A stretch of DNA of 64,000 bases from a bacterium (GTDB lineage Bacteria; Joyebacterota; Joyebacteria; Joyebacterales; Joyebacteraceae), in contig JAPEKQ010000002.1 in assembly GCA_029990205.1 (NCBI GenBank), forward strand, positions 96,845 to 160,844, in the 5' to 3' direction. The position numbers were made by a program, and so were the translations under genes. This document shows positions 34,083 to 59,039 of this stretch, piece by piece. The notes below the pieces were generated by a model, which saw only the letters and a program-made list of their open reading frames with translations, was not told where the DNA came from and made no database searches. The stretch's first letter is position 1. Each line of letters opens with the position of its first letter.

Positions 34083-34099
34083 GTCCCCTCCAGGGATCA

Positions 34100-35689: not shown

Positions 35690-35799
35690 GCCCCTGCGCC
35701 TCCTGGGCTCGGGTCAGCGTGTGCAACATGGTCAATAATGTGATGGTATGGGAATGATGAGACGTGTGTCAATACGGCTGTGTTCGATGCGCCGGCCGC

Positions 35800-37398: not shown

Positions 37399-38906
37399 TC
37401 GCCCACCCTCCTCAGGTCGAGCCTGCGAAGGAATCGCCGGGCGACCTCGCGATCGATGTCGTCGAAGGAGCGCGAGAGCGCGAAGCCCACGATACACAGC
37501 GCCGCAAGGACCGCTCCGAAGAGGATGACCAGCCAGCCGCCGGGTCGTCCGAACGCGACGTGGATACCGCGGACAGCGAACCCCACGACCACGAGTACAG
37601 CGACGGGGCGCGCGTGCTCGACCGAGAACGGCCACATCCCGTGAAGGACGCGAATCTCGAGAACACCCGCCAGGCCGCCCGCCGCGAGACCGCACGCCCC
37701 GGCGATAGCAGCGCCGACGACACCGTGCGACGGGATCAGGACTATGTCGAGAACCACGTTCACAACGACCATGACGAGCGCGTTGACGAATGAGAGTCGC
37801 GTGTGCCCCCACGCTTCGAGCGTCATGCCCTCGGGCCCGAGGATCGTCTTGAAGAACCGTCCCGCCGCGAGGATCACGAGCGCCAGGCCTCCGGCCGCAT
37901 AGCGTTGCGTGAACAGGAGCTGCACGACCTCATCGCCGAACAGCACGAGCGCGAGAAAGAGGATGCCATTGACCATGAAGACCCACTTGACGATCCGGTG
38001 GTAGAGCGAACCGATCTCCCCGGGATCATCCATGGCGATCCGCTCGCTGATGACAGGCTTGTACACGCGGGCGAACGACGCGAGAACGAGCGTGAGCGGC
38101 ATCACAAGACTCACGATGACCCGGTAGAGACCCGCGTCCGCCGCGGGCCGCATCCAGCCGAGAAAGAGGATGTCGAGCTGGCCGCGGAAGGTCACGACGA
38201 TGGTCGCCAGTGAAAGCGGCCACGAGTACGCGATGATCTGCCGCATGGACACGCGCGCCTGCGGACCCGAGAAGAAGAGCGGCCGCAGCCGGAATGCGAG
38301 GAACCACGTCGCCGCGAGTGCGGTTCCCAGCACGGCGAGCGCGTATCCGGACGCCCATCCGAGGAGCCCTGCGCCGGTGCCGAACAGGGCGACCGCCGCC
38401 GCGATCTTGAGGATCGGGAGCGTCAGGTACTGTATGTAGACCTCGTAGCGGACCTCCTGGCAGCCCACGAACGCGCTTGAGACCAGACGGATGAGAGCCA
38501 TGAACGGGATGCTCAACGCGACCAGCCGGAGCACGGGGGCGAGTTCGGCCTTGCCGAAGAGGCCCTCCGCGATCGGTACGGAGAAGACGGCCAGGACGAC
38601 CAGAACGACGGCTGAGGCCGTGAGCGAGAAGGTGAGGGAGCGCATGAGCAGGACGCCTGCCCTGCCGCGCTCGCCACGGGCCAGGTACTCCGGGATGAAA
38701 CGATCGAGTGCGTTCGGAAGGCCGAGAAGGACGACGAGCAGCGCGACGTTCGCGATGGCCTGAGCGAGCACGAATGTGCCGAACCGGTCCGGCCCGAGCC
38801 AACGCGTGAGAATGGCGAGCAGAACGTAGTTGAGCACGAGCGCCGCCACCGAACCGGTCAGCCCGATGCCAGCCTCCTTGAAGACCTTGAAGACCCTGCC
38901 CCTCAC
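37395..38906 (-). CDS. polysaccharide flippase (Wzx, MOP superfamily)
   Basis: 503 aa with about 14 hydrophobic segments, matching the usual polysaccharide-biosynthesis-protein layout. Confidence 0.78.
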   Translation of the reverse strand: MRGRVFKVFKEAGIGLTGSVAALVLNYVLLAILTRWLGPDRFGTFVLAQAIANVALLVVLLGLPNALDRFIPEYLARGERGRAGVLLMRSLTFSLTASAVVLVVLAVFSVPIAEGLFGKAELAPVLRLVALSIPFMALIRLVSSAFVGCQEVRYEVYIQYLTLPILKIAAAVALFGTGAGLLGWASGYALAVLGTALAATWFLAFRLRPLFFSGPQARVSMRQIIAYSWPLSLATIVVTFRGQLDILFLGWMRPAADAGLYRVIVSLVMPLTLVLASFARVYKPVISERIAMDDPGEIGSLYHRIVKWVFMVNGILFLALVLFGDEVVQLLFTQRYAAGGLALVILAAGRFFKTILGPEGMTLEAWGHTRLSFVNALVMVVVNVVLDIVLIPSHGVVGAAIAGACGLAAGGLAGVLEIRVLHGMWPFSVEHARPVAVLVVVGFAVRGIHVAFGRPGGWLVILFGAVLAALCIVGFALSRSFDDIDREVARRFLRRLDLRRVGE

Positions 38907-38960
38907 ATGTCCCCCTGCTCCTGACGCGCATCCGTCTCGCGCAACGTGCGCCCGGTGATG

Positions 38961-38989
38961 TTGAACCGCTATCCTACAGAGTGTAAGAT
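38961..38989 (+). promoter_or_regulatory. candidate sigma70-type promoter for the GT2 gene
   Basis: TTGAAC, 17 nt, TAAGAT. Confidence 0.55.
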
Positions 38990-39059
38990 ACTGCGTCCGC
39001 GATTGCGAGACGCGTGCAACGCGACGAGTCCAGGCAGACCACCCCGATCGGAGGCATCA

Positions 39060-40004
39060 GTGAGCGGAGTCAGCGGCATTGTGGTGCAGTACGGTCCGCC
39101 CGACCTGCTTCTCTCGCTCATCGACTCTCTCACGCATCACGAGAATGTAGCACTCATCTCGGAGCTCGTCATTGTCGACAACGGCGGCGGTCTGGGCGAC
39201 ACCGGCCGGCGCCGCGTCGAGGCGGCAGCGGAATCGCTGAACGTCCGGTTCGTCGAGACGCAGGGAACGAGCTACTCCGGCGGTGTGAATGCCGGCGTGA
39301 GGGCCTGCTCCGGCGACCTCGTCCTCGTCATGAACAACGATCTCATGTGGGCGCCGGACCTCAGCGTGCGTCCCCTCGAGGACGCGATGCTCGACGAGAC
39401 GGTGGGCATCGCCGGCCCGCAGCTCCTCAACGAAGACGGCTCGTGGCAGAGGAGCTTCGGACGATTCCCTTCGGTATCCTCGGCTCTCGAGTCGCTGTTC
39501 TTCATCGACACACTTCGAAACGCGCGCGCCGCCGGTCGAATGGCGGAAGCGCGCACCGGCAGACCGAAGGCGGTGCACTACGTCGACGGAGCGATGATGT
39601 GTGTCCGAAGGCGCTGCTTCGATGAGATTGGTGGATTGGACGAGTCGCTCCCGTTCTACGGTGAGGACACGGACTTCTGCCGTCGGGCGGCAATACGCGG
39701 ATGGACGGTGGCGTTCGTCCCGGCGGCCGGCGTCGTGCACGTCCGCGGCGCGACATCGACGCGGGAAGATCCCGCGGGCTACGAACGGAAGCTCTACTCC
39801 TCGAAGATCCGGTTCGTGAGGCGAACGGGAGGCGCAGCACGGGCGAGCTGGTACGCGCGGATCCTCAAGGCCGCGCTGGCTGTTCGAGCGGGGCTCTATC
39901 CGATCGCAGCCGCCGCGGCCGGGACCGAGTCGGCCCGCGCCAGAGCGGCGGCTGCTCAGAAACGATACGCGGCGGTCCGGGATCTCCCCGCCACCGGCGT
40001 CTAG
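39060..40004 (+). CDS. glycosyltransferase family 2
   Basis: SGIVVQYGPPDLL...VIVDNGG...YSGGVNAG...VMNNDL...GAMMCVRR. GTG 39060 is preceded by GGAGG (5-nt spacer). The track start at 38946 would overlap the promoter. Confidence 0.8.
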   Translation: MSGVSGIVVQYGPPDLLLSLIDSLTHHENVALISELVIVDNGGGLGDTGRRRVEAAAESLNVRFVETQGTSYSGGVNAGVRACSGDLVLVMNNDLMWAPDLSVRPLEDAMLDETVGIAGPQLLNEDGSWQRSFGRFPSVSSALESLFFIDTLRNARAAGRMAEARTGRPKAVHYVDGAMMCVRRRCFDEIGGLDESLPFYGEDTDFCRRAAIRGWTVAFVPAAGVVHVRGATSTREDPAGYERKLYSSKIRFVRRTGGAARASWYARILKAALAVRAGLYPIAAAAAGTESARARAAAAQKRYAAVRDLPATGV

Positions 40005-40017
40005 CTACCCTCTCTAC

Positions 40018-40515
40018 CTACCCGTCCTGTCGTCCCCAATCGTACGGCACGGTGCCGTCGTGCGGGTCGACGCGGAACTCATCCGGCTCGTCGTAGCGGT
40101 AGACCTCGGTCGGGCAGTTCACGAGCAGCCCCGGCTTGTCGCCGATGGCCTTCATGCCGTGGAGCACGCCCGGCGGGATGACGATGAGAATGCGGTTCTG
40201 CTCACCCATGAAGAACTCGTTGATCTCGCCATGGGTCGGCGAGTCCTCTCGACCGTCGTAGAGGACGACCTTCATCATCCCGCTGACGATCGTGAAGTAA
40301 TCCGTCTGCACCTTATGGTAGTGCCATCCCTTCACAACACCGGGGTAGGCGGCGGAGAGGTAGACCTGCCCGAACTTCTGGAAGATCCCGTCGTCCGCGC
40401 GGAGCATCTCCATAAGATAGCCACGCTCGTCGGGAATGAGCCGAAGCTGCTTGATCTCGACCCCGTCGATGAGGCGCTTCGCCTTCACGCCCGGCGGGAC
40501 TGCCTTCGTAGACAT
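40018..40515 (-). CDS. RmlC-like cupin (dTDP-4-dehydrorhamnose 3,5-epimerase-related)
   Basis: IPDERGYLMEMLR...VKGWHYHKVQTDYFTIVSG...IPPGVLHG. ATG 40515 with GAGGGGGA upstream. Confidence 0.75.
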   Translation of the reverse strand: MSTKAVPPGVKAKRLIDGVEIKQLRLIPDERGYLMEMLRADDGIFQKFGQVYLSAAYPGVVKGWHYHKVQTDYFTIVSGMMKVVLYDGREDSPTHGEINEFFMGEQNRILIVIPPGVLHGMKAIGDKPGLLVNCPTEVYRYDEPDEFRVDPHDGTVPYDWGRQDG

Positions 40516-40576
40516 CCTGTCCCCCTCGTGTTCGTCAATCGGAGCACGCAGGCCCCGTGGTGAGAGACCTGACCCT

Positions 40577-41896
40577 CTACTGCCGGGCCCGGCCGCGTCC
40601 AACACCGTCGTATGTGAACCCGTGCTTCTCGAAGTCAGCGGGCTGGTATATGTTGCGGCAGTCGACGACCGCGCGCCCCGGCATCACCTTCATGAGACGC
40701 TCGATATCGAGCTGTCTGAACTCGTTCCACTCGGTGACGAGGACGAGAACGTCCGCTCCTTCCGCCGCCGAGTATGCGTCCTCGGTGAACGTCACGAACG
40801 GCATGAGGGTGCGCGCATTGTCCATCGCGACCGGGTCGAACCCGCGGACGCTGGCGCCGAGTTCGTTCAGCCCCTCGGCGAGGATGATCGACGCCGCGTA
40901 CCTCATATCGTCGGTGTTCGGCTTGAACGCCAGCCCGAGAAGCGCGACCGTCTTCCCGGAGACATCGCCACCGGCCGCCGCGACGACCTTGTCGACCATG
41001 CGCAGCTTCTGCTCGATGTTGACCCGGACCGACGAGCTGACGATGCTGCACTCCACGCCGGCCGCCTCGGCGATCTTGGTGAGCGCCTTGGTGTCCTTCG
41101 GGAAGCAGGAACCGCCGTATCCGGCGCCCGCGTGCAGGAACTTCGGGCCGATCCGCTTGTCGAGACCCATGGCGTACGCGACGGTCTGAACATCGGCGCC
41201 GACGCACTCGCAGAGATTCGCGACCTCGTTGATGAAACTGATCTTCGTGGCGAGGAACGAGTTCGACGCGTACTTGATCAGCTCTGCGCTCTCCGGCGTC
41301 GTCTCGACGATCGGCGTCCTGATGAGATAGAGCGGCGAGTAGATGCTCCGCAGCGCCTGGAACGCCTTCTCACTGTCCGCGCCCACGACCACGCGGTCGG
41401 GCCGCATGAAGTCTCCGACGGCGGAACCCTCACGGAGGAACTCGGGGTTCGACACAACATCGAACTCGTGCGGCTCGGACTGCTCATCCCGGATGATCCT
41501 GCTGATGCGGCGCGCAGTCCCGACCGGGACCGTGCTCTTCTGAACGATGATGCGATAGCCGTCCATGTGCCTGCCGATGTCTCGAGCGACCGCGTCGACC
41601 TGAGACAGATCGACCGCTCCGTCCTCCCCCTCCGGCGTACCGACGGCGCAGAAGATGACGTCGCACTCCTTCACCGCGCGGCCGAAGTCGGTCGTGAACT
41701 CGAGACGTCCCTCCTGCACGTTCCGCAGCACCACCTCCGAAAGCCCGGGCTCGTAGAACGGGATCTCCCCCGCCTTCAGCTTCTTGATCTTCTCCTCGAG
41801 CAGGTCCACGCAGATGACGGTGTTGCCGAAGTCGGCGAGACCGGCCCCTCCTACGAGTCCGACGTAACCCGTTCCGATGACCGCGATCTTGTGCAT
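40577..41896 (-). CDS. ugd: UDP-glucose 6-dehydrogenase
   Basis: MHKIAVIGTGYVGLV...GGSCFPKD...AFKPNTDD. Confidence 0.9.
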   Translation of the reverse strand: MHKIAVIGTGYVGLVGGAGLADFGNTVICVDLLEEKIKKLKAGEIPFYEPGLSEVVLRNVQEGRLEFTTDFGRAVKECDVIFCAVGTPEGEDGAVDLSQVDAVARDIGRHMDGYRIIVQKSTVPVGTARRISRIIRDEQSEPHEFDVVSNPEFLREGSAVGDFMRPDRVVVGADSEKAFQALRSIYSPLYLIRTPIVETTPESAELIKYASNSFLATKISFINEVANLCECVGADVQTVAYAMGLDKRIGPKFLHAGAGYGGSCFPKDTKALTKIAEAAGVECSIVSSSVRVNIEQKLRMVDKVVAAAGGDVSGKTVALLGLAFKPNTDDMRYAASIILAEGLNELGASVRGFDPVAMDNARTLMPFVTFTEDAYSAAEGADVLVLVTEWNEFRQLDIERLMKVMPGRAVVDCRNIYQPADFEKHGFTYDGVGRGRARQ

Positions 41897-46368: not shown

Positions 46369-47754
46369 TCAGACGACCAGACCGAGAGCGGGCCAGTAGA
46401 ACAACGCTGCCGCCGCGAAGAGTGCGAGCGCCACGATCTTCAGAAGCGCCCCCACACTCACGGAGTGCTTGAGTCGGAAGTACCCGGCCGAGTACGCGAT
46501 GGCGTTCGGCGGCGATCCCATCGGAAGCGCGAACGCGAGACCCGCCGGCACCGCCACGGCGTAGACGACGAGGACGGGGGGTATGCCGGCTCCCTCCGCG
46601 ATGCCGAAGCAGATCGGCAGGAGGAGCGCTACCGCGGCCACGTTGCTGATGGCTTCCGTCAGGAAGGTCGCCACGAGCGCGAACGTCATCAGCATCCAGA
46701 ACGGTGGCATCGCTCCGATGCGCGCCATCCCGGCCTCCGCGATCCACCGCGCCGCGCCGGTCTCGTGCAGAGCGGCCGCGATCGCGATCGCGCCGCCGTA
46801 CATCAGAATGACACCCCAGTTCACGTACTCCTCGACACTCTTCCAATCGATGAGATTGAACGCGAACATAGAGACCGCCGCCAGGAGCGATATCGAGGCG
46901 AGATCGAACCCGCGCCCCGCGACGATCCAGCAGACGATCGTGACGATCACGATGGCCGCGATCCCCTTCTCTCGACGCCCCATCGGACCCAGCGCGTTCG
47001 CCTTCTCACGAAGCACAAGGCTGGCCCCGGAGACGTCCGTGACGTTCGATGGGAACGACCTCGAGAGCAACAGGAAGATGGCGCCCATGAGAACGATGGA
47101 CAGCGGGGCCACGGCCACCATCCAATCAAGGAATCCGATCGACAGGTTGTAGTGCTCCTTGAGGATCCCCAGGGCCAGAGGGTTCCTGGCGCCTCCGAGG
47201 AACGTTGCGACGCCCCCGACGACGGTTCCCCATGCGAGCGCGAGGAAGAGGGCGCGCCCGTACCGGCTCCGGCCGGGCTCGAGTTCAAGTGCGCGAGCGA
47301 TCTCGAGCACGATGGGGAACATCAGCGCGGCGACCGCGTGCTCAGGCATCCAGAACGCGAGGAACCCGCCGGCGAGGATCACGCCCGCGAGGAGCGTCCG
47401 GGGCCCGGAGTCGAAACGCCGGAGGAACACCAGCGCGAGACGCGTCGACAGCCCCGACTTCATCATCGCCGCGGCCATGATGAACGCACCGAGAATGAAG
47501 AAGACCGCCGAACTGCCGAAGAGCGAGAACGATCTGGACGCCGGGATGACGCGCAGTGTGGGAAGCATGACGATGGCGAGGATGCTGGTCACGGCAAGGG
47601 GCAGCGCGCCCGTGACCCAGAGCACGAAGCAGAGCGAGAAGATAGCCAGCGCGCTCTGCGCCTCACGCGCGAGTCCATCGGGTGTCGGCGCGATGAGAAT
47701 CGCCAGACACAAGATGACCCCGCCGATGAGACCCAGCAGCCTGAAGCGCTTCAC
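46369..47754 (-). CDS. SLC13/DASS-family anion:sodium symporter (ArsB/NhaD superfamily)
   Basis: Polytopic protein with GARNPLALGIL and GSPPNAIAY hairpin-loop motifs. GTG 47754 follows GGGAGG. Confidence 0.78.
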   Translation of the reverse strand: MKRFRLLGLIGGVILCLAILIAPTPDGLAREAQSALAIFSLCFVLWVTGALPLAVTSILAIVMLPTLRVIPASRSFSLFGSSAVFFILGAFIMAAAMMKSGLSTRLALVFLRRFDSGPRTLLAGVILAGGFLAFWMPEHAVAALMFPIVLEIARALELEPGRSRYGRALFLALAWGTVVGGVATFLGGARNPLALGILKEHYNLSIGFLDWMVAVAPLSIVLMGAIFLLLSRSFPSNVTDVSGASLVLREKANALGPMGRREKGIAAIVIVTIVCWIVAGRGFDLASISLLAAVSMFAFNLIDWKSVEEYVNWGVILMYGGAIAIAAALHETGAARWIAEAGMARIGAMPPFWMLMTFALVATFLTEAISNVAAVALLLPICFGIAEGAGIPPVLVVYAVAVPAGLAFALPMGSPPNAIAYSAGYFRLKHSVSVGALLKIVALALFAAAALFYWPALGLVV

Positions 47755-47904
47755 GCATCCTCCCGTTCGCCTCGACAAGGGGTCAGGATCGGCCTGACTC
47801 CCGCTCGGTCGTGATTCTTGCACCGTGGCTCGAAGAGTGTCAAGCGCGTTCGGGTGGTCGGGGAACTCCGACGGGCCGTGAACGGGTCCGGCCGTGTCCC
47901 CTCA

Positions 47905-47940
47905 GACAACGAAAGCGGGGCGGCCATCAGGCCGCCCCGC
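47905..47940 (-). terminator. rho-independent terminator closing the redox/peptidase operon
   Basis: GCGGGGCGGCC-ugau-GGCCGCCCCGC (11 bp) followed by UUUCGUUGUCU. Confidence 0.7.
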
Positions 47941-47964
47941 TCCGGTCATGGTCGTACGCTGCAC

Positions 47965-50289
47965 CTACTTCAGAAGCACCATCTTCGCCGATGCCTCGCG
48001 GCCCCCGGCGATGATCCGCGAGAAGTACACGCCCGCGGCGACACCGCGCCCGGCATCATCTCTGCCGTCCCAGACAACCTGGTGGCTGCCGGCGTCGCGC
48101 TCATCGCCCGCGAGCAGCGTCCGCACGAGCCTGCCGGCCGCGTCATAGACGCGGACGTCGGCGGTCCCACTCGAAGGCATCTGGAAGCTCACGCTCGTGT
48201 GCGGGTTGAACGGGTTCGGGAAGTTGGAGATGGCCAGCTCCCGCGGCACGAAGTCGTCCACGCCCGTCTCGGGCCCCTCGATCGAGATGAGTACGTCATC
48301 GACGTACCAGCCGTCGCGCTCGATGTACCCGTCGGAGTCGAGCAGGAACCGGATCTTGAACTGCGACGTGCCGACGTAGCTCGTCAGGTCGATCGTCTCC
48401 TCGGTCCAGGTCGACTGGCTCCCGTCGTACGTCGCGACGTCGGTCCAGGACGAGCCGTTGTTCGTGCTCACCTCGACGTAGCAGTAGTCGTAGCCGGACT
48501 CGGTGTCGTAGCGGTGCCAGAACGAGAGCTCGGCGCCATCGGCAGAACTGAGATCGATGGCGTTCGCGAGCGTCATCGTCTCGTAGTCGTTGCTCCCGTA
48601 GTTGCCACCCGGACTGTCGGTCATGCAGGTGCTCGGGCTGTACGACGTGGTCGTCGTCGTGCCCCAGCTCCCGGTCCACTCGGCGAGACCCGACTCGATA
48701 TCATCGAAGAAGTCGGGCGCCGCGAGGACGAAATCGACCGAAGCGATCGTGCCGTCGCCGACGCTGACATCGAGTTCCTCTCCCGACGAGTATCCGCTGC
48801 GCGACGCGCGGACATCATAGGTTCCGACAGGGATGTACTCGATCTCGTAGTAGCCGGTCGCATCGCTCTCGTCGGAGTAGCCGGTGGCGTCGGTCAGTTC
48901 GACCAGCGCTCCCTCGAGCGGCAACATCGACTCGTCACGAACGTAGCCTGCGATCGAACCGCGCGGCGGCGGCTCGAGCGCGAAGTTCACGACAACGAAC
49001 GTGTCGAGACTCGCGGAAACGTTGTAGACGGTCTGCGTCGGGTAGTCATCGGCCGAACAGACCACCGTGTAGGTGCCGGTCTCGACCATCCGGTGGTAGT
49101 CACCCACGTCCGGATCGGTGTAGATGTCCTTGCCGATCTCGGGGATGCTGATCGTCGCGTCGATGGGGTCGCCCGTCTCGGCGTCGGTCACCATCCCGCG
49201 AATCCCGCGGCCGGACATTCTGGCCTGATACAGCATCGCCGGGATGTTGTCGTCGACGATCCCGTCGATCGAAGACTCCGGCGGATCCTTCGTGACCGAC
49301 ACCTCGATCGTCGTGTCGATCTCGCCCCTCGTCTCGTAGCACCAGTCCTGGCAGGTGCCATCCGCGACGTACCAGTCGGCGCCGTTGGTCACCGGAAGAC
49401 CGCTCAGCGCGCCGTACTCGTCCGAGATCGTGATGATCATCGGTTCGTCGGGGGTCGGGTTGTACGTGTAGTCCCAGAGGTAGTTGACGTAGACCGCGCC
49501 CGAATGGAACGTGAGCGACGTCACCGGCCGCTTGTCCAGGTCGAAGTCACGGAGCGCCTGCGTCTCGGGCTCGGAGAACGCGGAACCGGCGTTGCTTCCG
49601 TCCGGACAGAGGTAGTTCCGGTTGAGATCGGTCCCGTTCCCGTTGTAGCGGGAGCCGTTCTCGTAGCCGTCCGGATTGAACATCGGGATGATCGTGATCT
49701 CGCGCTCGTTGACGAGCCACGTCACCTGGGGATCGGTCCCGTAGTTCTCGAGGAGGTACTCGATCATGTAGTAGCAGACGGCCATACTGATGGTCTCGTC
49801 GCCGTGGTGCGCGCCGATCCACTGGATCTCGGCCTCGAACTCCTCGACCGTCGGGTTGTCCGTGATCTTCAGCGCCCACATCTCCCGGCCGTACACGCTC
49901 TGACCGATCGAGACGAGTTCCGTGATGTTCGAATAGGTCGACGCCCACGCCTGCATGTCAGCCGTGAGCTCCGCGTAGCTGACGTACACGCCGCGGTCGG
50001 GCACCTTGAGCGACGCCACGGCGTCGATCATGTTCTCGACCGTGATGGCGGGGCGGAACCCGTTCGCCCACAGCGTCTCGATCTCCTCGGGGATGGCGGC
50101 GATCTGCGCCTTCCCGTCGGTCACGGACATGATGTCCATGTGGAGCTCGTTGAGACGATGGATATCGGCCCGCGAGAAGATGTCCACTTCAACAACGGCC
50201 GCGTCATCGCGCGGATAGGCAAGGACGGTCCCGGGGAGCGTCAGCAGGATGAGGAGGACGCCTGCCAGCGCGAGCTGAGCGACCCTCAT
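47965..50289 (-). CDS. secreted M14 zinc carboxypeptidase with two CarboxypepD_reg-like domains, a jelly-roll domain and a Por/T9SS-type (FlgD-Ig-like) C-terminal tail
   Basis: ATG 50289 with AAGGAG (7-nt spacer). Signal peptide MRVAQLALAGVLLILLTLPGTVLA. HxxE zinc motif WIGAHHGDE. Tail: NFPNPFNPHTSVSF...VRVYDAAGRLVRTL...VVWDGRDDAGRGVAAGVYFSRI...KMVLLK. Confidence 0.85.
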   Translation of the reverse strand: MRVAQLALAGVLLILLTLPGTVLAYPRDDAAVVEVDIFSRADIHRLNELHMDIMSVTDGKAQIAAIPEEIETLWANGFRPAITVENMIDAVASLKVPDRGVYVSYAELTADMQAWASTYSNITELVSIGQSVYGREMWALKITDNPTVEEFEAEIQWIGAHHGDETISMAVCYYMIEYLLENYGTDPQVTWLVNEREITIIPMFNPDGYENGSRYNGNGTDLNRNYLCPDGSNAGSAFSEPETQALRDFDLDKRPVTSLTFHSGAVYVNYLWDYTYNPTPDEPMIITISDEYGALSGLPVTNGADWYVADGTCQDWCYETRGEIDTTIEVSVTKDPPESSIDGIVDDNIPAMLYQARMSGRGIRGMVTDAETGDPIDATISIPEIGKDIYTDPDVGDYHRMVETGTYTVVCSADDYPTQTVYNVSASLDTFVVVNFALEPPPRGSIAGYVRDESMLPLEGALVELTDATGYSDESDATGYYEIEYIPVGTYDVRASRSGYSSGEELDVSVGDGTIASVDFVLAAPDFFDDIESGLAEWTGSWGTTTTTSYSPSTCMTDSPGGNYGSNDYETMTLANAIDLSSADGAELSFWHRYDTESGYDYCYVEVSTNNGSSWTDVATYDGSQSTWTEETIDLTSYVGTSQFKIRFLLDSDGYIERDGWYVDDVLISIEGPETGVDDFVPRELAISNFPNPFNPHTSVSFQMPSSGTADVRVYDAAGRLVRTLLAGDERDAGSHQVVWDGRDDAGRGVAAGVYFSRIIAGGREASAKMVLLK

Positions 50290-50326
50290 GGAACATCTCC
50301 TTTCACAGGGTTCTGACACGAGGACA

Positions 50327-50348
50327 GGTGGCCGGCACGCCGGCCACC
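50327..50348 (-). other. intercistronic GC hairpin between the Sec-protein gene and the M14 gene
   Basis: GGUGGCCGGC..GCCGGCCACC with no U-tract. It may stabilise the mRNA or act as a partial terminator. Confidence 0.4.
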
Positions 50349-50414
50349 CGCCCCCACGGATGAACTGTGCGCCTATCTCCGGGCTGCGGAGTCAGGCTCT
50401 TGATCTGCGCTCCC

Positions 50415-52460
50415 CTACTTCAGAAGCGCCATCTTGATGACATCGGTCTCCTCCGCGGTCACGAGCCTCGCGAAGTAGACACCGGTGGCCACGCTTCTGC
50501 CGCCCTCGTCACGACCGTTCCACACCACCGAGTGCGGTCCAGCCTCGATCTCGGAGTCCACGAGCGTCCGGACGAGCTGTCCGTTGACATTGTAGACACT
50601 GAGTTCCACCGCGCCCGCGTTGGCCGGGACGCTGAACTGGATGTTCGTGACGGGGTTGAACGGATTCGGCGTGTTCTGACGGAGAGCGAGCTTCGTGAAG
50701 TCCGTCTCGGGCTCCTCGACCCCGGTCTCGTCGAAGTCGAACCAGTCCATGATCTTCCCGGCAACCGTCATCTGGTTGTTCGGATCCGGATCATCGGTCT
50801 TGATGTCCTCGAACGGGAAGGCGAAGAAGACGATCTTGTGCCCGTTCTCGGAGATCTTGAGCGCCTTGTTTCCGCTGCCCGTCGTGAAGATCACGTCGGA
50901 CGTCGTCTCGAACGAGTCGCTCTCGGAGTACGGGATCGGTCCACCGAGCAGACCGAGCGACATGCCGTCGGAGATGAAGTCGGAAGCAACGCCGGTCATG
51001 ATGAACCCGGATGTGTCGTTCGTCCACGACGTGACGTGGAGGTAGTCCTCGATGAACGTGTTGGTCGACCGGCTCGAGAGGTAGTTCATGCTCAGCAGCG
51101 CGAGGTTGCCGCCCGCATCAAGATACCCCATCATCGCGTCCTCAGCAGCGGCCGTGATCGTCAGCGCATCGCGGCTCGCCGTCGTCCAGAAGACCGCGTA
51201 GTAGTCGGTGAGCTGCGGCAGACCCGGCGTGCCGTCGGTGTACGGACTCAGCGTGTACGGGTAGTACCCGTTGTCGGTGAGCGCGTCCTGGATGTAGGTC
51301 TCGTACATCATCGGACCGTCGTCGTCGACGATGAGGATCGCCGGTGTCTCGCAGAAGGCCACGAATTCGGAAACCTGCTCCATCGCGTTCGCCGCACTGG
51401 TCATGCTGAGCGACGTCACACCCTTGTCCACGAGCGTTCCGTTGTAGTCGATGATGTGCACGGTGAGCGTCTCGGTATCGCCGGCCGCGACGAAAATGTC
51501 GGTCGCGCCCATGTAGCAGATGCCGTCGGTCGTGCAGTAGTTGGAGACCCAGTTGTACGGATCGCCGGGGAAGTCGGTCGTGAAGTCAAACGTGTACGTG
51601 TCGTCGGCGGTACCCGTGTTCGTGCAGTAGACGGTGTACACGGCCTCGCCGAAGAAGTCGATCTCCTCGGCGTGGTGCGTCGCGACCATCTCGAACGAAT
51701 ACGGATCGGGCATGATCGCCGCGTTGATGACCTGCTGCGGCGACTGATCCTCGATGAAGACAACGACGTGCATGTTGAGCGGGTTGTCCGTCGAGTTCGT
51801 CACACCCGTGAACGTCTTGTTGAACGTGACGTGCTCGCCGACCTCGAGATCGGCTTCGAGGATGGTCTCGGCCATGAGCATGTCGCGGACCGTGTACGGG
51901 TACGAAGCGTTCACGTCCTCGTAGATGACGAACTGCGCGACCAGGTCGCCCGCGCCGATGACATCCGTCGCTGTGAACGTGACATCGATCGTCCCGCCGA
52001 CGGTCCCGCGAGTCCCCTCGGCCACGATCGTGCCGGACACATCGATCTCGACCGGTGACGCGACAGCGAGACGAGACTCGACGATCGGGCCGAAGGTGTT
52101 CCCCACCGTCGTGCCCGCGCCAACGACATTCTGCGCACCATCGAACACCGTGTGCGGAATGCCGCCGACACTGTAGTAGCTCGCGCGCTGATAGGTGTCA
52201 CCAGTCGCGTAGATGTCGCTCACGTGGTAATAGAGCACCACGAGATCATCACCGTACGGGCCATACTGCACGCCGGTACTCGTGTGCACATAGCCGTTGT
52301 CCTGAAGGTCTACCAACGCCGCACGGGCGTTTGGGCAGTAGCCTCAGCCAGTTGATCCAAAGAGCTCCGCCAGGACCGCCCTGTCCGACGCGAGGGCGGA
52401 GACGGCGGACATCAGCAGGACTGCCGTCACGAGGGCAAAGATCGCCGTACGCTTCACCAT
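50415..52460 (-). CDS. candidate selenoprotein: secreted thioredoxin-like UxxC protein with Por/T9SS-type C-terminal tail (TGA 52344-52346 read as Sec)
   Basis: ATG 52458-52460 with AAGGAG (6-nt spacer). Signal peptide MVKRTAIFALVTAVLLMSAVSALA. An in-frame TGA occurs at codon 39, and the same frame then runs without a stop into the 633-codon track ORF. The TGA aligns with the first Cys of CVNCPN in the paralog at 52618..53706. Tail: NTPNPFNPVTNIQF...LSVYNVNGQLVRTL...VVWNGRDEGGRSVATGVYFARL...KMALLK. Confidence 0.7.
52307..52343 (-). promoter_or_regulatory. candidate bacterial SECIS hairpin immediately 3' of the TGA
   Basis: The RNA GGCUACUGCCCAAACGCC[CGUGC]GGCGUUGGUAGACC can form about 13 bp. 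The upper stem is AACGCC/GGCGUU, there is a bulged A, and the apical loop CGUGC starts 19 nt after the UGA. Confidence 0.5.
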
Positions 52461-52617
52461 GCTGCTCTCCTTTCGCGGCGATGCCGCGCTGCTCTCAGGA
52501 TCCTTTCGCCCAGCCCAATGTGGCGACAGTGTTCCTGCTCTCGTGCTGTCGTTTCATGCTTCCTGTCGTCATCCGCTGCTGTTATGTCCTTCTCCCTGCA
52601 CCTGTGGTTCATCTATC

Positions 52618-53706
52618 TCAAGGACGCTGCGAGGTCGAGAGCCTCGCCGACTGAATGATCTCCAGCGTGTCATCGTTCTGAATGAACGCGATCGCGTCCA
52701 GATTCGCTGCGTTCCAACCGGGGTCGAGCGTCACGTCGTAGATGACCTCGGTGGACTCTCCGACTGCGGCCAGTGTGAACTGCTCGTCGTCGAGGATGTC
52801 GCGCGCGACGAACGGGAACAGATGCTGCGCGAAGGCAACATCCTCCTCCATCACGACGGTTCTCAGTACGTAGTCGCCCGCCGGCAACGCGTCTTCGACC
52901 CACACCTTCGCCGTCAACGAAGCGCGCGCCGAGAGGTCGCCGGTCAGCTCCATCGTGAGCGGTGACCCCACCGCCCGTCTGAGCTCGATCTCGAACTCGT
53001 ACTCGTCCTCGGCCTCCGCTACCGACGCGGCGCCGACGATCAGGCGCCCACCGTCGAAGATGGCCATCGGATGACCGCTACCGCCCGGGAACTCGGGATG
53101 GTTCAGATACCAGGTCTCCCGGGCCGCGGTCTCCGCCGTCCCGACCGGCTGGAGTGTGTGCCAGGCGACGACACAGAGCCTGTCCCTGCCGTACGCGTCC
53201 ATGAGGTTCTCGAGCGCCGCCTCGCCGTTGGGGCAGTTGACGCACGCGAAGTCGGTCATGAACTCGACGAGCACGTTCCGGTCGACCAGCCCCCCGGCCG
53301 GCCCGGCCGAGAACGAACAGGTCGCCGCTGTTCCCTCATCACCGGCGTCATCGACGGCCGCGACGGTGAAGACGTGATCGCCCTCCTCTACACTCTCAAT
53401 GAGAAGCGTGTCCGCCGTCGTCGATCCCGTGACGGTGTCGTCGTACGTCCACTCGTAGCTCGCCACATCACCATCGATGTCCGTGCCGACCCACCGGATG
53501 ATCGTGTCCTCGCCGGCGAGAAGCGTGCCCGCCTGGGGACAATCGGTGATCGTCACGCTCGGCAGGAAGTTCGCCGCGATCGGATCTGTGAACCAGTCAC
53601 ATCCTCCCTGTGCCGCGATCCAGACGACCAGGAGGATGAGCGCGAACAGCGGCCTGGCGGCGCGCGGCCGACCAACGCTGCTCGTATGATGCGTTCCGTT
53701 CGTCAC
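52618..53706 (-). CDS. lipoprotein with Ig-like N-domain and thioredoxin-like CxxC module (Cys paralog of the Sec protein)
   Basis: GTG start after AGGAGG. Lipobox LLVVWIAAQGGC. Redox motif FACVNCPNGEAALENL. It is collinear with the neighbouring gene through ...AIAFIQNDDTLEIIQSARL, compared with VVVFIEDQSPQQVINAAIM. Confidence 0.75.
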   Translation of the reverse strand: MTNGTHHTSSVGRPRAARPLFALILLVVWIAAQGGCDWFTDPIAANFLPSVTITDCPQAGTLLAGEDTIIRWVGTDIDGDVASYEWTYDDTVTGSTTADTLLIESVEEGDHVFTVAAVDDAGDEGTAATCSFSAGPAGGLVDRNVLVEFMTDFACVNCPNGEAALENLMDAYGRDRLCVVAWHTLQPVGTAETAARETWYLNHPEFPGGSGHPMAIFDGGRLIVGAASVAEAEDEYEFEIELRRAVGSPLTMELTGDLSARASLTAKVWVEDALPAGDYVLRTVVMEEDVAFAQHLFPFVARDILDDEQFTLAAVGESTEVIYDVTLDPGWNAANLDAIAFIQNDDTLEIIQSARLSTSQRP

Positions 53707-53718
53707 GAAACCATCCTC

Positions 53719-55197
53719 CTAGAAGTAGGTCGTCAGTCTGACGCGCGCACCCGAGAACTCCGGCTCGACGCGGCAGACGCCGCCCGAGCACTTGAGACCG
53801 CCGCGCTCGCTTCCGATCGACACGCCAAGCTCGAGGTCATCTCTGAGAATGCTCTTCACCTCGAACATCGCCCAGACACTCCGGTCCTCGGACTCGTCAT
53901 CCGTTCCCTCGACAACCGACGCGAAGGTGATGCCGGACGACGTGTAGACGGTCATCGCGACGAGGTAGTCGAGCGATACCGTCTCGGCGATGTCGGTCGT
54001 CTCACCGGCCTGCACCTGGAGCTCCATCGGCTGACCCGACGGCAGCGGCAGGATCACTTCCGCTCCGGCCGTCTTGTGCTCGATGAACTTGCCGAGTTCG
54101 TACTCGCGGGACCAGGCGGCTCCGGCAGAGAGTGACGTGTCACCGATCCACGCGTCGGCCTGCCCGAACATCTCCCAGTGCGCCAGGTCGGCGTCGTGGT
54201 TCCTCGCCTCCGACGCCCCGCCGAGGACGGTGACGCTCTCTCCGAGCGGCACGGTCGCCTCGACAAGATACCCGCGCTCGTCGTTGAGCTTCGGCTCGTA
54301 GGTCGCGCGGTTCATCAGCGTCCAGAGATGCTCGCGTACGGCCGTCGGCGGATTGACCAGGAAGTGCTGGAACCGGTCGTAATCCTTGTACTCACCGAAC
54401 AGCGTTGCCCACGGCAGCTCGACCGTCGCCGTGACATAGGTGGCATGACCCTCCATGTCATCGATCTCGAGTTCTCCGTCGTCGCCCTGACGCCCGACAT
54501 ACTCGCCCGCCAGCGACACCGGACCGAGCCACGCATTCACCTCACCGCCCAGAAGCAGGTCCTCGGAGCGCCCGAGTGACTCGGTAACGATCGGATCGTC
54601 GTCTTCCTTGTTCGACGCCCGCTCAACGACGCTTCCCGCGATGTCGAGCCAGCTCGCGACCGAGCGGGTCGCGCGAACAGCGCGAACGTTGTGCCTGCGA
54701 TACCTCGTCTCGGACAGCGGCTCGTCCACGGAACCCGCCAGCACGGTCACATCGGCGGCCGAGAACGAATACTCACCGAGCAGGCCGTCGAGCACGGTGT
54801 CGTGCTCAAGATCAACATCCTCGAAGCTCCTCAGAGCCAGCCCGCGACCGAACGTCGAGTAGAAGTGTCCCACCCGCAGGTGGAGATTCTCACGGTCGAG
54901 CGCGGCGTACCGGTGCTTGATCTCGGACTCCGGGATGTTCACGCCAGCCGGGTTGTATGTCGGCAGCGAGAGCTGGTAAGCGCGGTAGACGGCGCCCACG
55001 GTCAGCGGACCTATGCCGGCATCGACTTCGAGTCTGGCGTCGAAGGCGGACGCCTCCTCCCCCGTATCGAAGAGATACTCGCCGGTCACCGCGCCGCTCG
55101 ACCAGGCTCCGTCATCGGCCGAGGCTATCGCCGGCGCGACGGACATGAGTCCCGCAACGGCGATGCAAAGGAGGACTCGTCTAGTCAACGGCTCCAT
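53719..55197 (-). CDS. outer-membrane beta-barrel protein (family not recognised)
   Basis: ATG 55197. Signal peptide MEPLTRRVLLCIAVAGLMSVAPAIASA. Alternating-polarity strand pattern throughout, with C-terminal ...RVRLTTYF (aromatic terminus typical of BAM substrates). Confidence 0.62.
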   Translation of the reverse strand: MEPLTRRVLLCIAVAGLMSVAPAIASADDGAWSSGAVTGEYLFDTGEEASAFDARLEVDAGIGPLTVGAVYRAYQLSLPTYNPAGVNIPESEIKHRYAALDRENLHLRVGHFYSTFGRGLALRSFEDVDLEHDTVLDGLLGEYSFSAADVTVLAGSVDEPLSETRYRRHNVRAVRATRSVASWLDIAGSVVERASNKEDDDPIVTESLGRSEDLLLGGEVNAWLGPVSLAGEYVGRQGDDGELEIDDMEGHATYVTATVELPWATLFGEYKDYDRFQHFLVNPPTAVREHLWTLMNRATYEPKLNDERGYLVEATVPLGESVTVLGGASEARNHDADLAHWEMFGQADAWIGDTSLSAGAAWSREYELGKFIEHKTAGAEVILPLPSGQPMELQVQAGETTDIAETVSLDYLVAMTVYTSSGITFASVVEGTDDESEDRSVWAMFEVKSILRDDLELGVSIGSERGGLKCSGGVCRVEPEFSGARVRLTTYF

Positions 55198-55762
55198 CCT
55201 CGTTGACGGCCGCTTCCTCGGTCTCAGCCTCGTCGCCCTCGTCCGGACAGTCCTCGGGGATGAGCGCCGCGACGGCGGCGTCCAGTTCCGCGTGGTTCGT
55301 CGGCCGGTACCCGGTGACCGCCCACGCGACCGTCCCATCCTGCCTCACGAGAACCGTGCGCGGGACCGACGTCACGTGGTACTTCTTCGCGACGGCCATA
55401 CTCGGGTCGAGCAGCACCTCAAAGGTGTTGCCCTTCGAGGCGATGAACGGCTTCACCTTCGAGGTCGAACGAGGTCCGTCGATCGAGATCGCAACGACCG
55501 TCAGACCGCAGTCTTCGTATTTGTCAAAGAGCTCCTGCAGATCCGGAAAGGCCTTGATGCACGGCTTGCACCACGTGGCCCAGAAATCAAGGACAACCGG
55601 TCCATCCTTCAGCAACTCAGAGAGCGTCACATCTTCGCCGTCGATGTTCTTCAGCGTGAACTCGGGCGCCTTCGCATTGGCGCCGTATGACATAGTCGTC
55701 CCCATCAACACGAGGACGGCCGCGCACAGAAGTGCGAGTCCGGTTCGTCTCCTGCCGGTCAT
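55181..55762 (-). CDS. TlpA/ResA-type periplasmic thiol:disulfide oxidoreductase
   Basis: Signal peptide. PEFTLKNIDGEDVTLSELLKDGPVVLDFWATWCKPCIKAFP. Confidence 0.85.
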   Translation of the reverse strand: MTGRRRTGLALLCAAVLVLMGTTMSYGANAKAPEFTLKNIDGEDVTLSELLKDGPVVLDFWATWCKPCIKAFPDLQELFDKYEDCGLTVVAISIDGPRSTSKVKPFIASKGNTFEVLLDPSMAVAKKYHVTSVPRTVLVRQDGTVAWAVTGYRPTNHAELDAAVAALIPEDCPDEGDEAETEEAAVNEDGAVD

Positions 55763-55788
55763 GAGTCCCCCAATAGTTGGCCTAACTT

Positions 55789-55817
55789 ATTATACCACCA
55801 TCATTACCAATGGTCAA
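55789..55817 (-). promoter_or_regulatory. near-consensus sigma70 promoter of the redox/peptidase operon
   Basis: Minus strand reads TTGACC, 17 nt, TATAAT. The 26 nt between the -10 and ATG 55762 contain GGGGGA. Confidence 0.7.
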
Positions 55818-57591: not shown

Positions 57592-58176
57592 CTAGATGTT
57601 CTCCGCGCCGCCCAGGAGCATCTCGATCTCGGACCGCATCTCGGGACGCATCTCGTTGGAGAAACCGATGTGCTTGGCTGCGATGCGACCGTCGCGCCCG
57701 ATGATGAACGTCGTCGGAATACCGCTGACCTTGTACGCCTCACCGACGGTACGGTTGCCAACGAGAATCGTGTAGTCGATGCCGTTGCTGTCGACGAACG
57801 GAGCGAGATCCGTCGCGCCACCCTGGTCGAGGCCGACGATCTCGAGCCCCTGCTCTTCGAACTCATCGTAGAGCTCTATGAGGAACGGGATCTCCTCGCG
57901 GCACGGCGGACACCACGTCGCCCAGAGGTCGAGCACGACGACCTTGCCATCGAAATCGCTCAGCGAGACTTCCTCGCCGTCGAGATTCGGAAGCACGAAC
58001 GCCGGCGGGAACTCACCCACGTTGACGCCGGTCTCCTCGGAGGTTTCGGGGCTGTCCATCGCGACGGTCTCGTCCGCCGTCGTCGCGGCCTCGTCCGTCG
58101 AGCCGCTGCACCCGCCGAGGATGCCGACGGCGAACAGGGCGATCAGCGCGAAGGCCACTGCGTTTCTCATCTTCAT
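57592..58176 (-). CDS. TlpA-family thiol:disulfide oxidoreductase lipoprotein
   Basis: Lipobox GILGGCSG. VVLDLWATWCPPCREEIPFL. Confidence 0.85.
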   Translation of the reverse strand: MKMRNAVAFALIALFAVGILGGCSGSTDEAATTADETVAMDSPETSEETGVNVGEFPPAFVLPNLDGEEVSLSDFDGKVVVLDLWATWCPPCREEIPFLIELYDEFEEQGLEIVGLDQGGATDLAPFVDSNGIDYTILVGNRTVGEAYKVSGIPTTFIIGRDGRIAAKHIGFSNEMRPEMRSEIEMLLGGAENI

Positions 58177-58240
58177 AGTCTCACTCCCTGAGCTGTGTCC
58201 GCGCCGGGCGCCGTGCGCCGCGCGGAAGCTGTGTCCGTGC

Positions 58241-58573
58241 CTATGCGAGATGCTGGTCGATGCGCTCCTGGATGCTCTGCTTCGAGGCGGCGCCGACGAT
58301 CATGTCGACCTGCTGTCCGGCCTTGAAGAACAGAAGCGCGGGGATGCCGCGGATGCCGTACTGCTGCGCGAGCGTCGGGTTCTCATCGACGTTCACCTTC
58401 GCGACCTTCATCTTGCCTGCGTTGTCGACGGCGATCTCGTCCACGACGGGACCGACGAGCCTGCACGGGGCACACCAGGGCGCCCAAAAGTCCACGAGGA
58501 CCAGTCCGCTGTCACCAGCTACTTCCGTCGCGAAGTTGTCGACCGTTGCTGTGATCACGCCTTCTCCAGCCAT
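58241..58573 (-). CDS. trxA: thioredoxin
   Basis: VLVDFWAPWCAPCRLVGP...GIRGIPALLFFK. Confidence 0.92.
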   Translation of the reverse strand: MAGEGVITATVDNFATEVAGDSGLVLVDFWAPWCAPCRLVGPVVDEIAVDNAGKMKVAKVNVDENPTLAQQYGIRGIPALLFFKAGQQVDMIVGAASKQSIQERIDQHLA

Positions 58574-58643
58574 TGTACTCCCCCTGTTGCCCCGCCGTCA
58601 TGCGGCGGGTGTTTCGGGTCCGCTGCCACTGTTGTCGATCGTT

Positions 58644-58967
58644 CTAGTTCCGCTTCCCGCTCGCGCGCCCGTGTGCCGGGGGCACAAGCACCTTCAACAC
58701 CGCCGCCGCAGACTCATCCCGCAGCCGGTAGCAGACGAGGTGCCCCTTTCTCTCCGACTCGATGAGCCCCGCGTACCGAAGCCGCTGCAGATGCTGGGAA
58801 ACCGACGGCTGCGGCACCCCCAGAAGCTCCTCAAGCCTGCTGACACACAGCTCCCCCTCCCGAAGCAGATGCACGATTCTGAGCCTGGTCGGGTGAGACA
58901 TCGCTTTGAGGACCTCGGCAGCGCGGCCGAAGGTCTCTTCGATGTTCCCGCTGCCTGGTGAGGTCAT
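58644..58967 (-). CDS. ArsR/SmtB-family transcriptional regulator
   Basis: HPTRLRIVHLLREGELCVSRLEELLGVPQPSVSQHLQRLR. ATG 58967 follows AAGGAG (7-nt spacer). The track start at 58985 contains that SD. Confidence 0.85.
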   Translation of the reverse strand: MTSPGSGNIEETFGRAAEVLKAMSHPTRLRIVHLLREGELCVSRLEELLGVPQPSVSQHLQRLRYAGLIESERKGHLVCYRLRDESAAAVLKVLVPPAHGRASGKRN

Positions 58968-58984
58968 GGTCACGCTCCTTGTCA

Positions 58985-59039
58985 CATGGAATATGCAAAT
59001 GTCATGATACTATATAATCACGATATCAGGCGGTGTCAA
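58985..59039 (-). promoter_or_regulatory. promoter (TTGACA-17-TATATA) plus 22-bp imperfect palindrome, a candidate ArsR operator
   Basis: The -35 is at 59034-59039 and the -10 at 59011-59016. The palindrome CATGgaATaTGCAaATgtCATG at 58985-59006 is symmetric at 16 of 22 positions and lies between the -10 and the SD. This is the most AT-rich stretch I noticed in the window. Confidence 0.6.

Follow-up and report, generated by a model that had tools for sequence, protein, structure and literature searches.

The window analyzed here, 64,000 nucleotides of contig JAPEKQ010000002.1 (assembly GCA_029990205.1) from an uncultured bacterium of the Eisenbacteria type (GTDB lineage Joyebacterota), carries at positions 47905–55817 a five-gene operon for exported proteins, which are referred to below as G1 to G5 in order of transcription. 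The locus is probably one copy of a conserved envelope thiol/selenol–disulfide oxidoreductase module that recurs in multiple phyla. It combines a periplasmic TlpA-type reductase (G1), an outer-membrane beta-barrel of the DUF6029 family (G2), and two proteins with Omp28-type thioredoxin domains (G3 and G4), the second of which very likely contains selenocysteine (Sec). As a statement of functional linkage, the reading of these genes as a redox relay is well supported by sequence comparison, because the TlpA, DUF6029, and Omp28-type genes stay linked, TGA recurs at the redox site, and the CxGGxC motif of the barrel is invariant. The best-supported reading is that of a dedicated reductive thiol/selenol pathway leading from periplasmic TlpA to outer-membrane and surface redox proteins, and the recurring gene set points to a so far undescribed means of bringing reductant to the cell surface.

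The five genes share the minus strand and together make up a single unit from promoter to terminator. The genes and the elements within G4 are as follows; T9SS stands for type IX secretion system, CTD for C-terminal domain, and SECIS for selenocysteine insertion sequence.

55181–55762, minus strand: G1, exported TlpA/ResA-type thiol:disulfide reductase with a WCKPC site and an acidic C-terminal tail (Pfam and NCBIfam matches, DUF6029 neighbor)
53719–55197, minus strand: G2, DUF6029 outer-membrane beta-barrel with C470-S-G-G-V-C475 and a C-terminal Phe (PF19494)
52618–53706, minus strand: G3, lipoprotein with a PKD-like domain followed by an Omp28-type thioredoxin-like domain, CVNC (profile matches, paralogy with G4)
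50415–52460, minus strand: G4, very likely a secreted selenoprotein, U39-G-Y-C42 (in-frame UGA, Omp28-type thioredoxin domain, T9SS CTD)
52344–52346, minus strand: in-frame UGA, very likely read as selenocysteine (TGA/Cys alternation in orthologs)
52302–52347, minus strand: SECIS-like hairpin, AACGCC/GGCGUU stem and CGUGC loop (fold and synonymous-site conservation)
47965–50289, minus strand: G5, M14 zinc carboxypeptidase with two CarboxypepD_reg domains, a MAM-like domain, and a T9SS CTD (Peptidase_M14)

Linkage of the TlpA, DUF6029, and Omp28-type genes

A scan of genome contigs with the DUF6029 alignment reached Eisenbacteria only, and a broader alignment combined with a metagenome scan was then used. 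Within Eisenbacteria, G1, G2, G3, and G4 were adjacent in all 31 species loci that were long enough. Among the metagenome loci, all 27 that have usable flanks, which span a GC content of 38–72%, show the TlpA gene immediately next to the DUF6029 gene, frequently with an overlap; about 17 of these 27 also have Omp28-type genes within their flanks. In candidate division TA06, a G4-like gene, a G3-like gene, TlpA, and DUF6029 occur in a different order and lie between Fe-S and NAD genes. At locus L042 (48% GC), TlpA and DUF6029 are accompanied by an Omp28 lipoprotein, a GATase1-like protein, and a G4-like protein of the Sec type; the tails of the secreted proteins encoded there are dockerins, not T9SS domains. 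The deeper clade of L035, L048, and L060 has G4 divided between two T9SS-tailed proteins that flank the core, one with the Omp28-type thioredoxin domain and a CTD upstream of TlpA and the other with the sandwich and GATase1-like domains and a CTD after G3, a Rosetta-stone relationship. The survey of gene neighborhoods that the earlier note had proposed thus found the TlpA, DUF6029, and Omp28-type genes traveling together in Eisenbacteria, TA06, and other lineages, with their order shuffled and their neighbors unrelated. At one distant DUF6029 locus (L043), a neighbor with a CxxC motif was not counted, since Pfam did not confirm a thioredoxin-like fold.

The G1 product matches the AhpC-TSA (96.2 bits) and Redoxin (84.9 bits) families of Pfam and has an N-terminal export signal; here, as elsewhere in this analysis, signal peptides and the lipobox were judged by eye. 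It is closest to the ResA, TlpA, and DsbE models and lies below the equivalog cut-offs (53 bits versus 230 for TlpA and 101 versus 170 for ResA). An acidic low-complexity tail of 15–25 residues ends the TlpA proteins of the module (window 55181–55260, L007, L035, and L042), and the codons for this tail overlap the barrel gene or lie immediately beside it.

The G2 product scored 97.5 bits with PF19494 (DUF6029), for which the gathering threshold is 27. Conservation in the family peaks at a C[SA]GGxC motif (Cx4C), which 129 of 130 DUF6029 homologs carry some 20 residues before the C-terminus. Residues 470–475 of G2 (window 53770–53790, minus strand) contain the sole two cysteines of the mature protein, and G2 shares the C-terminal aromatic residue that is present family-wide. 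By the alternation pattern of the terminal strands, the Cys pair is predicted to sit in the final extracellular or lumen-facing loop, before the last strand. A search of PDB chains with the DUF6029 profile gave no relevant match, and Pfam otherwise yielded only a weak SlpA_C match for G2.

These data bear on a different view of the barrel, namely that DUF6029 is a Wzi-like solute or polysaccharide porin and that the redox genes are neighbors serving some other process. Homologs of the Wzi barrel are reported to resemble DUF6029 by HHpred (PMC9603273, the one paper found to mention the family), and an OPX/Wzx/Wzy cluster lies 12–20 kb away both in the window and in its relatives. However, TlpA and DUF6029 are strictly juxtaposed in all 27 of the diverse metagenome loci with usable flanks, the TA06 and L042 loci are without nearby polysaccharide genes, and the conserved Cx4C suits redox chemistry. 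The porin idea fits the data poorly and is regarded as quite improbable.

Omp28-type redox domains and the in-frame UGA

The N-terminal parts of G3 and G4 are paralogous, with 26% identity over 238 amino acids (E 3e-17), and the CVNC of G3 is aligned to the UGYC of G4. The redox site of G3 is of the Cys type in every ortholog seen. Its lipobox, AAQGGC, is atypical, whereas those of its homologs are canonical (e.g., LAGGC and LAAGC). Against PF11551 (Omp28; gathering threshold 34.9 bits), G4 scored 26.6–26.9 bits and G3 16.8 bits; against NF045500 (Omp28-related selenoprotein; cut-off 200 bits), G4 scored 40.5 bits and G3 42.5 bits, so that both proteins fall below both thresholds. They also match NF033782, and their scores with the NCBIfam Omp28 models are 40–45 bits compared to cut-offs of 150–200. 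The homologs from L042 pass PF11551 with 49.2 and 39.7 bits, and 71 of 74 sampled relatives of the G3 domain match Omp28 models weakly. The G3 domain has 670 relatives among 1.84 billion cluster representatives; they include lipoproteins, T9SS cargo, and tandem-domain proteins, and show the motif LFTATWCxxCPxA. Judged by these profile scores, the redox domains of G3 and G4 are remote, sub-threshold members of the Omp28 superfamily. These thioredoxin modules are not orphans: they are remote Omp28 relatives, and an NCBI model, NF045500, already exists.

The G4 protein consists, in this order, of a signal peptide, the Omp28-type thioredoxin domain, two beta-sandwiches, a GATase1/ThuA-like domain, and a T9SS CTD. 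Structure prediction was carried out on P0003, a Cys ortholog that is 78% identical to G4. The AlphaFold model of P0003 (predicted local distance difference test score, 85) shows a beta-alpha-beta-alpha-beta-beta-alpha thioredoxin-like unit, two beta-sandwiches, an alpha/beta domain, and the CTD. A Foldseek search of the PDB with the whole P0003 model returned only generic tandem beta-sandwich matches (e.g., RbmA and transglutaminases) and was uninformative. Searches of PDB chains with the G3 and G4 sequences gave nothing relevant, G4 having no detectable sequence similarity to any solved chain. The GATase1-like domain is a conserved partner that lacks the catalytic triad; its candidacy as a catalytic glutaminase was rejected, as it has no invariant Cys or His.

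At 45% identity (E 6e-31), the C-terminal tails of G4 and G5 bear out the shared tail described in the earlier note, and the tail can be named: it is a T9SS type A sorting domain. Both proteins pass the cut-off of 23 bits for TIGR04183 (31.7 bits for G4 and 27.2 bits for G5) and match FlgD_ig with 50.6 and 43.8 bits, respectively. Parts of G4 also occur in other arrangements. In P0045, from another Eisenbacteria metagenome-assembled genome (MAG), the half of G4 that contains the sandwich, the GATase1-like domain, and the CTD is joined to an M6 metalloprotease in one protein (44% identity, covering 55% of the query). Locus L029 (12653–18084) has two full G4-like copies, both of the Sec type (U-SFC and U-GSC), before its M14 gene, together with a third gene, also before the M14 gene, that matches only the middle domain of G4. 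In L020, the GATase1-like half is present in an additional copy.

Codon 39 of G4 is TGA (52344–52346), in the context FGSTG-U-GYC-PNARAAL, and it very likely encodes selenocysteine, as several lines of comparative evidence indicate. First, the UGA is aligned with the first Cys of CGYC in P0003, P0008–P0018, and other orthologs, and at this position the loci of 12 Eisenbacteria species have TGA, with TGT or TGC in its place in 8 more. Second, public gene calls for G4 are of two lengths, approximately 670 amino acids for full proteins with CGYC and approximately 620 for proteins that start just past the motif; in the DNA of the loci of the short class, an in-frame TGA is preceded by the conserved signal peptide and first strand. 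Third, Sec forms are found in other lineages as well. They occur in the L009 and L042 lineages (the L042 site being U-GGC), in a G4 homolog of 24% identity (W-U-VYC), and in 11 of 25 Omp28-type genes beside metagenome TlpA–DUF6029 pairs, including those of organisms with 38–42% GC. A distant Sec homolog adjoins DsbD-like genes. A tRNA-SeC gene lies 300–400 nt from Sec-type Omp28-like T9SS genes at L057 (290–383) and at L061 (2136–2229); both are low-GC contigs that also carry the TlpA–DUF6029 pair, so the Sec trait is shown in these related systems only. Since TGA is the ordinary stop codon that terminates G3, the genetic code is standard, with no reassignment. A further Omp28-like open reading frame, with the site YFTNCG-TGA-GYC, lies upstream of the module at about position 5711 of L030, from a deep-branching Eisenbacteria MAG.

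Downstream of the UGA, a hairpin, AACGCC-CGUGC-GGCGUU, starts after 12 nt. In the Sec forms, AACGCC-CGUG(C/A)-GGCG(U/C)U is retained even where a change would be synonymous, including at a CGU Arg codon, together with the peptide PNAR(A/E)AL; most Cys forms diverge at the hairpin in both DNA and peptide. An Rfam scan of the region found no known RNA and no match to a SECIS model. A crude scan of the window for other genes with an in-frame TGA gave antisense artifacts only and carries little weight, as it also missed G4.

The TGA might instead be a true stop, with G4 either a pseudogene or a gene that starts at the TTG at 52316, the upstream signal-peptide frame being a remnant. Public gene callers do begin the protein past the TGA (P0001 and others), and fossil 5′ fragments of such genes exist. 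In L022 (12654–12900) and L027 (12606–12870), the leader RNA described in the next section precedes the 5′ remnant of a dead Sec-type G4 (signal peptide and FGATS-TGA-G) and then out-of-frame junk, downstream of which stands an intact Cys-type G4 with its own start; by their sequences, these loci look like the footprint of a Sec gene replaced by a Cys copy. However, a protein started at the TTG would be without the signal peptide, the first strand of the thioredoxin fold, and the active site. Moreover, the 38 codons before the TGA are conserved with the Cys-form orthologs, the TGA falls exactly at the catalytic Cys position across many species and lineages, and tRNA-SeC adjoins the module in two contigs. 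The pseudogene idea therefore fits the data poorly and has only the slightest chance of being correct. With selenocysteine as the very likely reading, the pattern of replacement says that the Omp28-type domain should be catalytic, because the Sec/Cys exchange falls at the attacking position. The many natural Sec/Cys pairs and the traces of replacement in the G4 family should be useful for studying why selenium is chosen.

Transcription unit, leader RNA, and neighboring genes

The control elements of the operon are the following.

55789–55817, minus strand: sigma-70-type promoter, TTGACC-17-TGgTATAAT (pattern scan and conservation in 12 of 12 species)
52458–52542, minus strand: structured leader RNA 5′ of the ribosome-binding site of G4 (RNAalifold and covariance model R1)
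50316–50358, minus strand: 19-bp hairpin between G4 and G5, with no U tract (z −3.2)
47905–47942, minus strand: intrinsic terminator of the operon, 13-bp GC stem, then UUUCGUUGU

The layout given in the earlier note, with five same-strand genes, a promoter, the spacers listed here, a hairpin, and a strong terminator, was confirmed at these coordinates, and all five gene assignments proved right, including the putative UxxC selenoprotein and the tail common to the last two products. The G1 and G2 genes overlap by 17 nt, G3 starts with GTG 12 nt past the stop codon of G2, and the G3–G4 and G4–G5 spacers are 157 and 125 nt long. A GGAG-type ribosome-binding site precedes every one of the five starts, that of G2 included. 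The promoter has 11 of 12 consensus matches and a TG extension. The pattern scan alone is not significant, as it found three sites compared to 1.4 expected; CTTGAC-N17-TGnTATAAT is kept at an equal distance before the TlpA gene in every one of 12 species, among which the DNA beyond the promoter is unalignable and whose proteins are 44–90% identical to those of the window. The terminator was not called by the scan tool; its stem (47913–47942) has a z-score of −4.2 and folds better than every one of 200 shuffled versions. The hairpin between G4 and G5 is GC-rich and free of a U tract in all species examined (L001–L029), its sequence differing between clades, and it may act as an mRNA 3′-end stabilizer or as a partial terminator that sets the ratio of G4 to G5. 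A sigma-54 or extracytoplasmic function sigma factor promoter in the G3–G4 spacer was considered and rejected by eye, as the spacing and motifs are unfit.

The leader RNA of G4 (85 nt) comprises a long imperfect hairpin, a 10-nt palindrome, CAGGAUCCUG, and a GCGGC/GCCGC hairpin. RNAalifold gave 16 pairs, 3 of them with compensatory changes. The covariance model R1 scored 62–94 bits in 18 species, 2 of which were outside the training set, and its matches were always 5′ of G4; it found nothing comparable elsewhere in 591 kb, and the leader had no Rfam match. Candidate roles for the leader are those of a regulator, an operator, or a site of processing.

The G5 product is a complete M14 enzyme (Peptidase_M14, 175.5 bits) with CarboxypepD_reg and MAM-like domains, and the motifs HHGDE (HxxE), NRN, FHSG, and TIEVS are visible by eye in its translation. 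The M14 gene lies 3′ of G4 only in the closer Eisenbacteria clade and is absent from the TA06, L042, and L030–L036 versions of the module. Because of this limited distribution it stands outside the core, and the protease is not the member of the system that it had first been taken for. It would rather be a clade-specific, co-transcribed passenger, which may cut substrates unfolded by reduction.

In the wider neighborhood, about 2 kb upstream of the operon (57592–58985, minus strand), lie genes for an ArsR-family regulator, a cytoplasmic thioredoxin (WCAPC), and a second TlpA-like protein, a lipoprotein with an LGGC lipobox and a WCPPC site. This trio, together with YkuD and deoxynucleoside kinase genes, is conserved beside the operon throughout Eisenbacteria. 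A DASS-family Na/sulfate-type symporter gene with its own promoter-like site (46369–47823) follows the operon. Elsewhere in the window, at 11320–15066 and 30225–41896 (minus strand), an LptD gene and a Wzx/Wzy/OPX polysaccharide cluster with a UDP-glucose dehydrogenase gene are found in an ordinary housekeeping context; the presence of LptD confirms a diderm envelope.

Proposed pathway and comparison with known systems

A CcdA or DsbD membrane protein is required to carry electrons into the periplasm, and, contrary to what had been supposed, the TlpA protein does not import them itself. In the dedicated reductive pathway proposed here, reducing equivalents would enter the periplasm via a CcdA or DsbD protein encoded elsewhere in the genome, and TlpA would receive them and hand them to the outer-membrane-associated thioredoxin modules. 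The barrel may hold or expose the lipoprotein, by analogy in a plug-and-barrel or porin–cytochrome fashion, an arrangement that would allow recycling of the surface-anchored Sec enzyme. The latter, with its DsbC-like U/CGYC site, would reduce or isomerize extracellular disulfides or oxidized substrates, and its selenocysteine would be more nucleophilic and would withstand over-oxidation in the extracellular setting.

Several observations weigh against this pathway. The 64-kb window encodes neither CcdA nor DsbD, no T9SS gene (SprA/Sov, PorV, PorU, or GldKLMN), and none of the factors for Sec decoding (tRNA-Sec, SelA, SelB, or SelD). The whole region around the operon is syntenic within Eisenbacteria, and linkage inside that group alone is weak evidence for this reason. 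A subset of high-GC loci has TlpA and DUF6029 without an Omp28-type gene within the flanks, so that the TlpA–barrel pair may act independently of the thioredoxin proteins. The topology of the Cys pair in the barrel and the membrane side of G3 are read from sequence patterns only. Finally, the SECIS-like hairpin is no more stable than its shuffles (z −0.41), and RNAalifold detected no covariation in the region, because the hairpin hardly varies. The SECIS evidence is thus suggestive only.

The main competing explanation is that TlpA is an aid to biogenesis, which keeps the Cys and Sec residues of the barrel Cx4C and of the thioredoxin cargo reduced during periplasmic transit, before assembly or export by the T9SS; once outside, G4 would use environmental reductants, such as sulfide, or act only once. 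It is established that TlpA, ResA, and CcmG are substrate-specific periplasmic reductases in maturation, and the invariant Cys pair makes the barrel a plausible TlpA client. The occurrence of TlpA–DUF6029 pairs without nearby Omp28-type genes is in keeping with this explanation as well. What it leaves unexplained is the retention across phyla of an outer-membrane lipoprotein and a secreted protein with paralogous redox domains, and the frequent use of Sec at the catalytic residue, which suggests repeated turnover. For these reasons, a role in biogenesis alone is considered unlikely. The proposal of the earlier note, a dedicated envelope redox system, receives strong support from genome comparisons; its further element, the passage of electrons across the outer membrane, is our inference only, a point that also speaks for the biogenesis explanation.

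The dedicated pathway has a stronger form, in which TlpA, DUF6029, and the Omp28-type lipoprotein constitute the first thiol/selenol-based conduit across a bacterial outer membrane and feed a surface-anchored, T9SS-exported selenoenzyme. The thioredoxin domain of the lipoprotein, the CxGGxC loop of the barrel, or both would shuttle the equivalents from the periplasm to the surface. This conduit is put forward tentatively and is rather doubtful at present. If true, it would provide an enzymatic extracellular disulfide reductase or isomerase for diderms of several phyla of the FCB (Fibrobacterota–Chlorobiota–Bacteroidota) type.

Reductive thiol pathways of Gram-negative bacteria are generally taken to end in the periplasm. 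Whether reducing power is supplied to the outer surface without heme conduits, and by what means, is the open question that the module addresses, and it offers a concrete, testable candidate. It adds a family of T9SS-exported selenoproteins (dockerin-tailed in one lineage) and gives a first functional handle on DUF6029 and the Omp28 superfamily. No paper was found that describes this gene module, ties Omp28 to selenoproteins, or links Eisenbacteria to selenocysteine or the T9SS, and none was found that joins selenoproteins with type IX secretion, the sole co-mention being in an unrelated rabbit-nutrition study.

Compared to known systems, the module shows both familiar and distinct features. 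First, the DsbD/CcdA pathways that serve TlpA, ResA, CcmG, and DsbC employ proteins of the same kind as G1, with an exported AhpC-TSA/Redoxin fold and WCxxC, and the active site of DsbC is CGYC, whose dipeptide is the same as that of the U/CGYC site of G4. However, those periplasmic pathways end at cytochrome c, Cu centers, or misfolded proteins, whereas the partners here are an outer-membrane barrel, an outer-membrane lipoprotein, and a T9SS-exported protein. Second, members of the Omp28 family (PF11551, NF033782, and NF045500) resemble G3 and G4 in having a thioredoxin-like CxxC/UxxC unit followed by a beta-sandwich, and NF045500 shows that a branch of Omp28-related selenoproteins with Sec at the first Cys is already known to NCBI curators; G3 and G4 score far below the cut-offs of these models, and the other module-linked Sec forms also miss NF045500.

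Third, HBP35 of Porphyromonas gingivalis is a surface-anchored T9SS cargo with a thioredoxin motif and a CTD, and it has thioredoxin activity in vitro (PMC2907840). It is a precedent for a T9SS-exported surface thioredoxin such as G4 but lacks Sec and a GATase1-like domain, and it is not reported to share an operon with TlpA and an outer-membrane barrel. Fourth, MtrCAB, LptDE, RcsF–OmpA, and Slam-dependent surface lipoproteins follow the same logic of a barrel gene closely tied to a lipoprotein gene, between a periplasmic donor and a surface acceptor. The likeness is one of analogy only, and DUF6029 is unrelated in sequence to MtrB, LptD, and Slam. In contrast to the MtrCAB conduits, the present system would have thiol/selenol pairs instead of hemes as its carriers.

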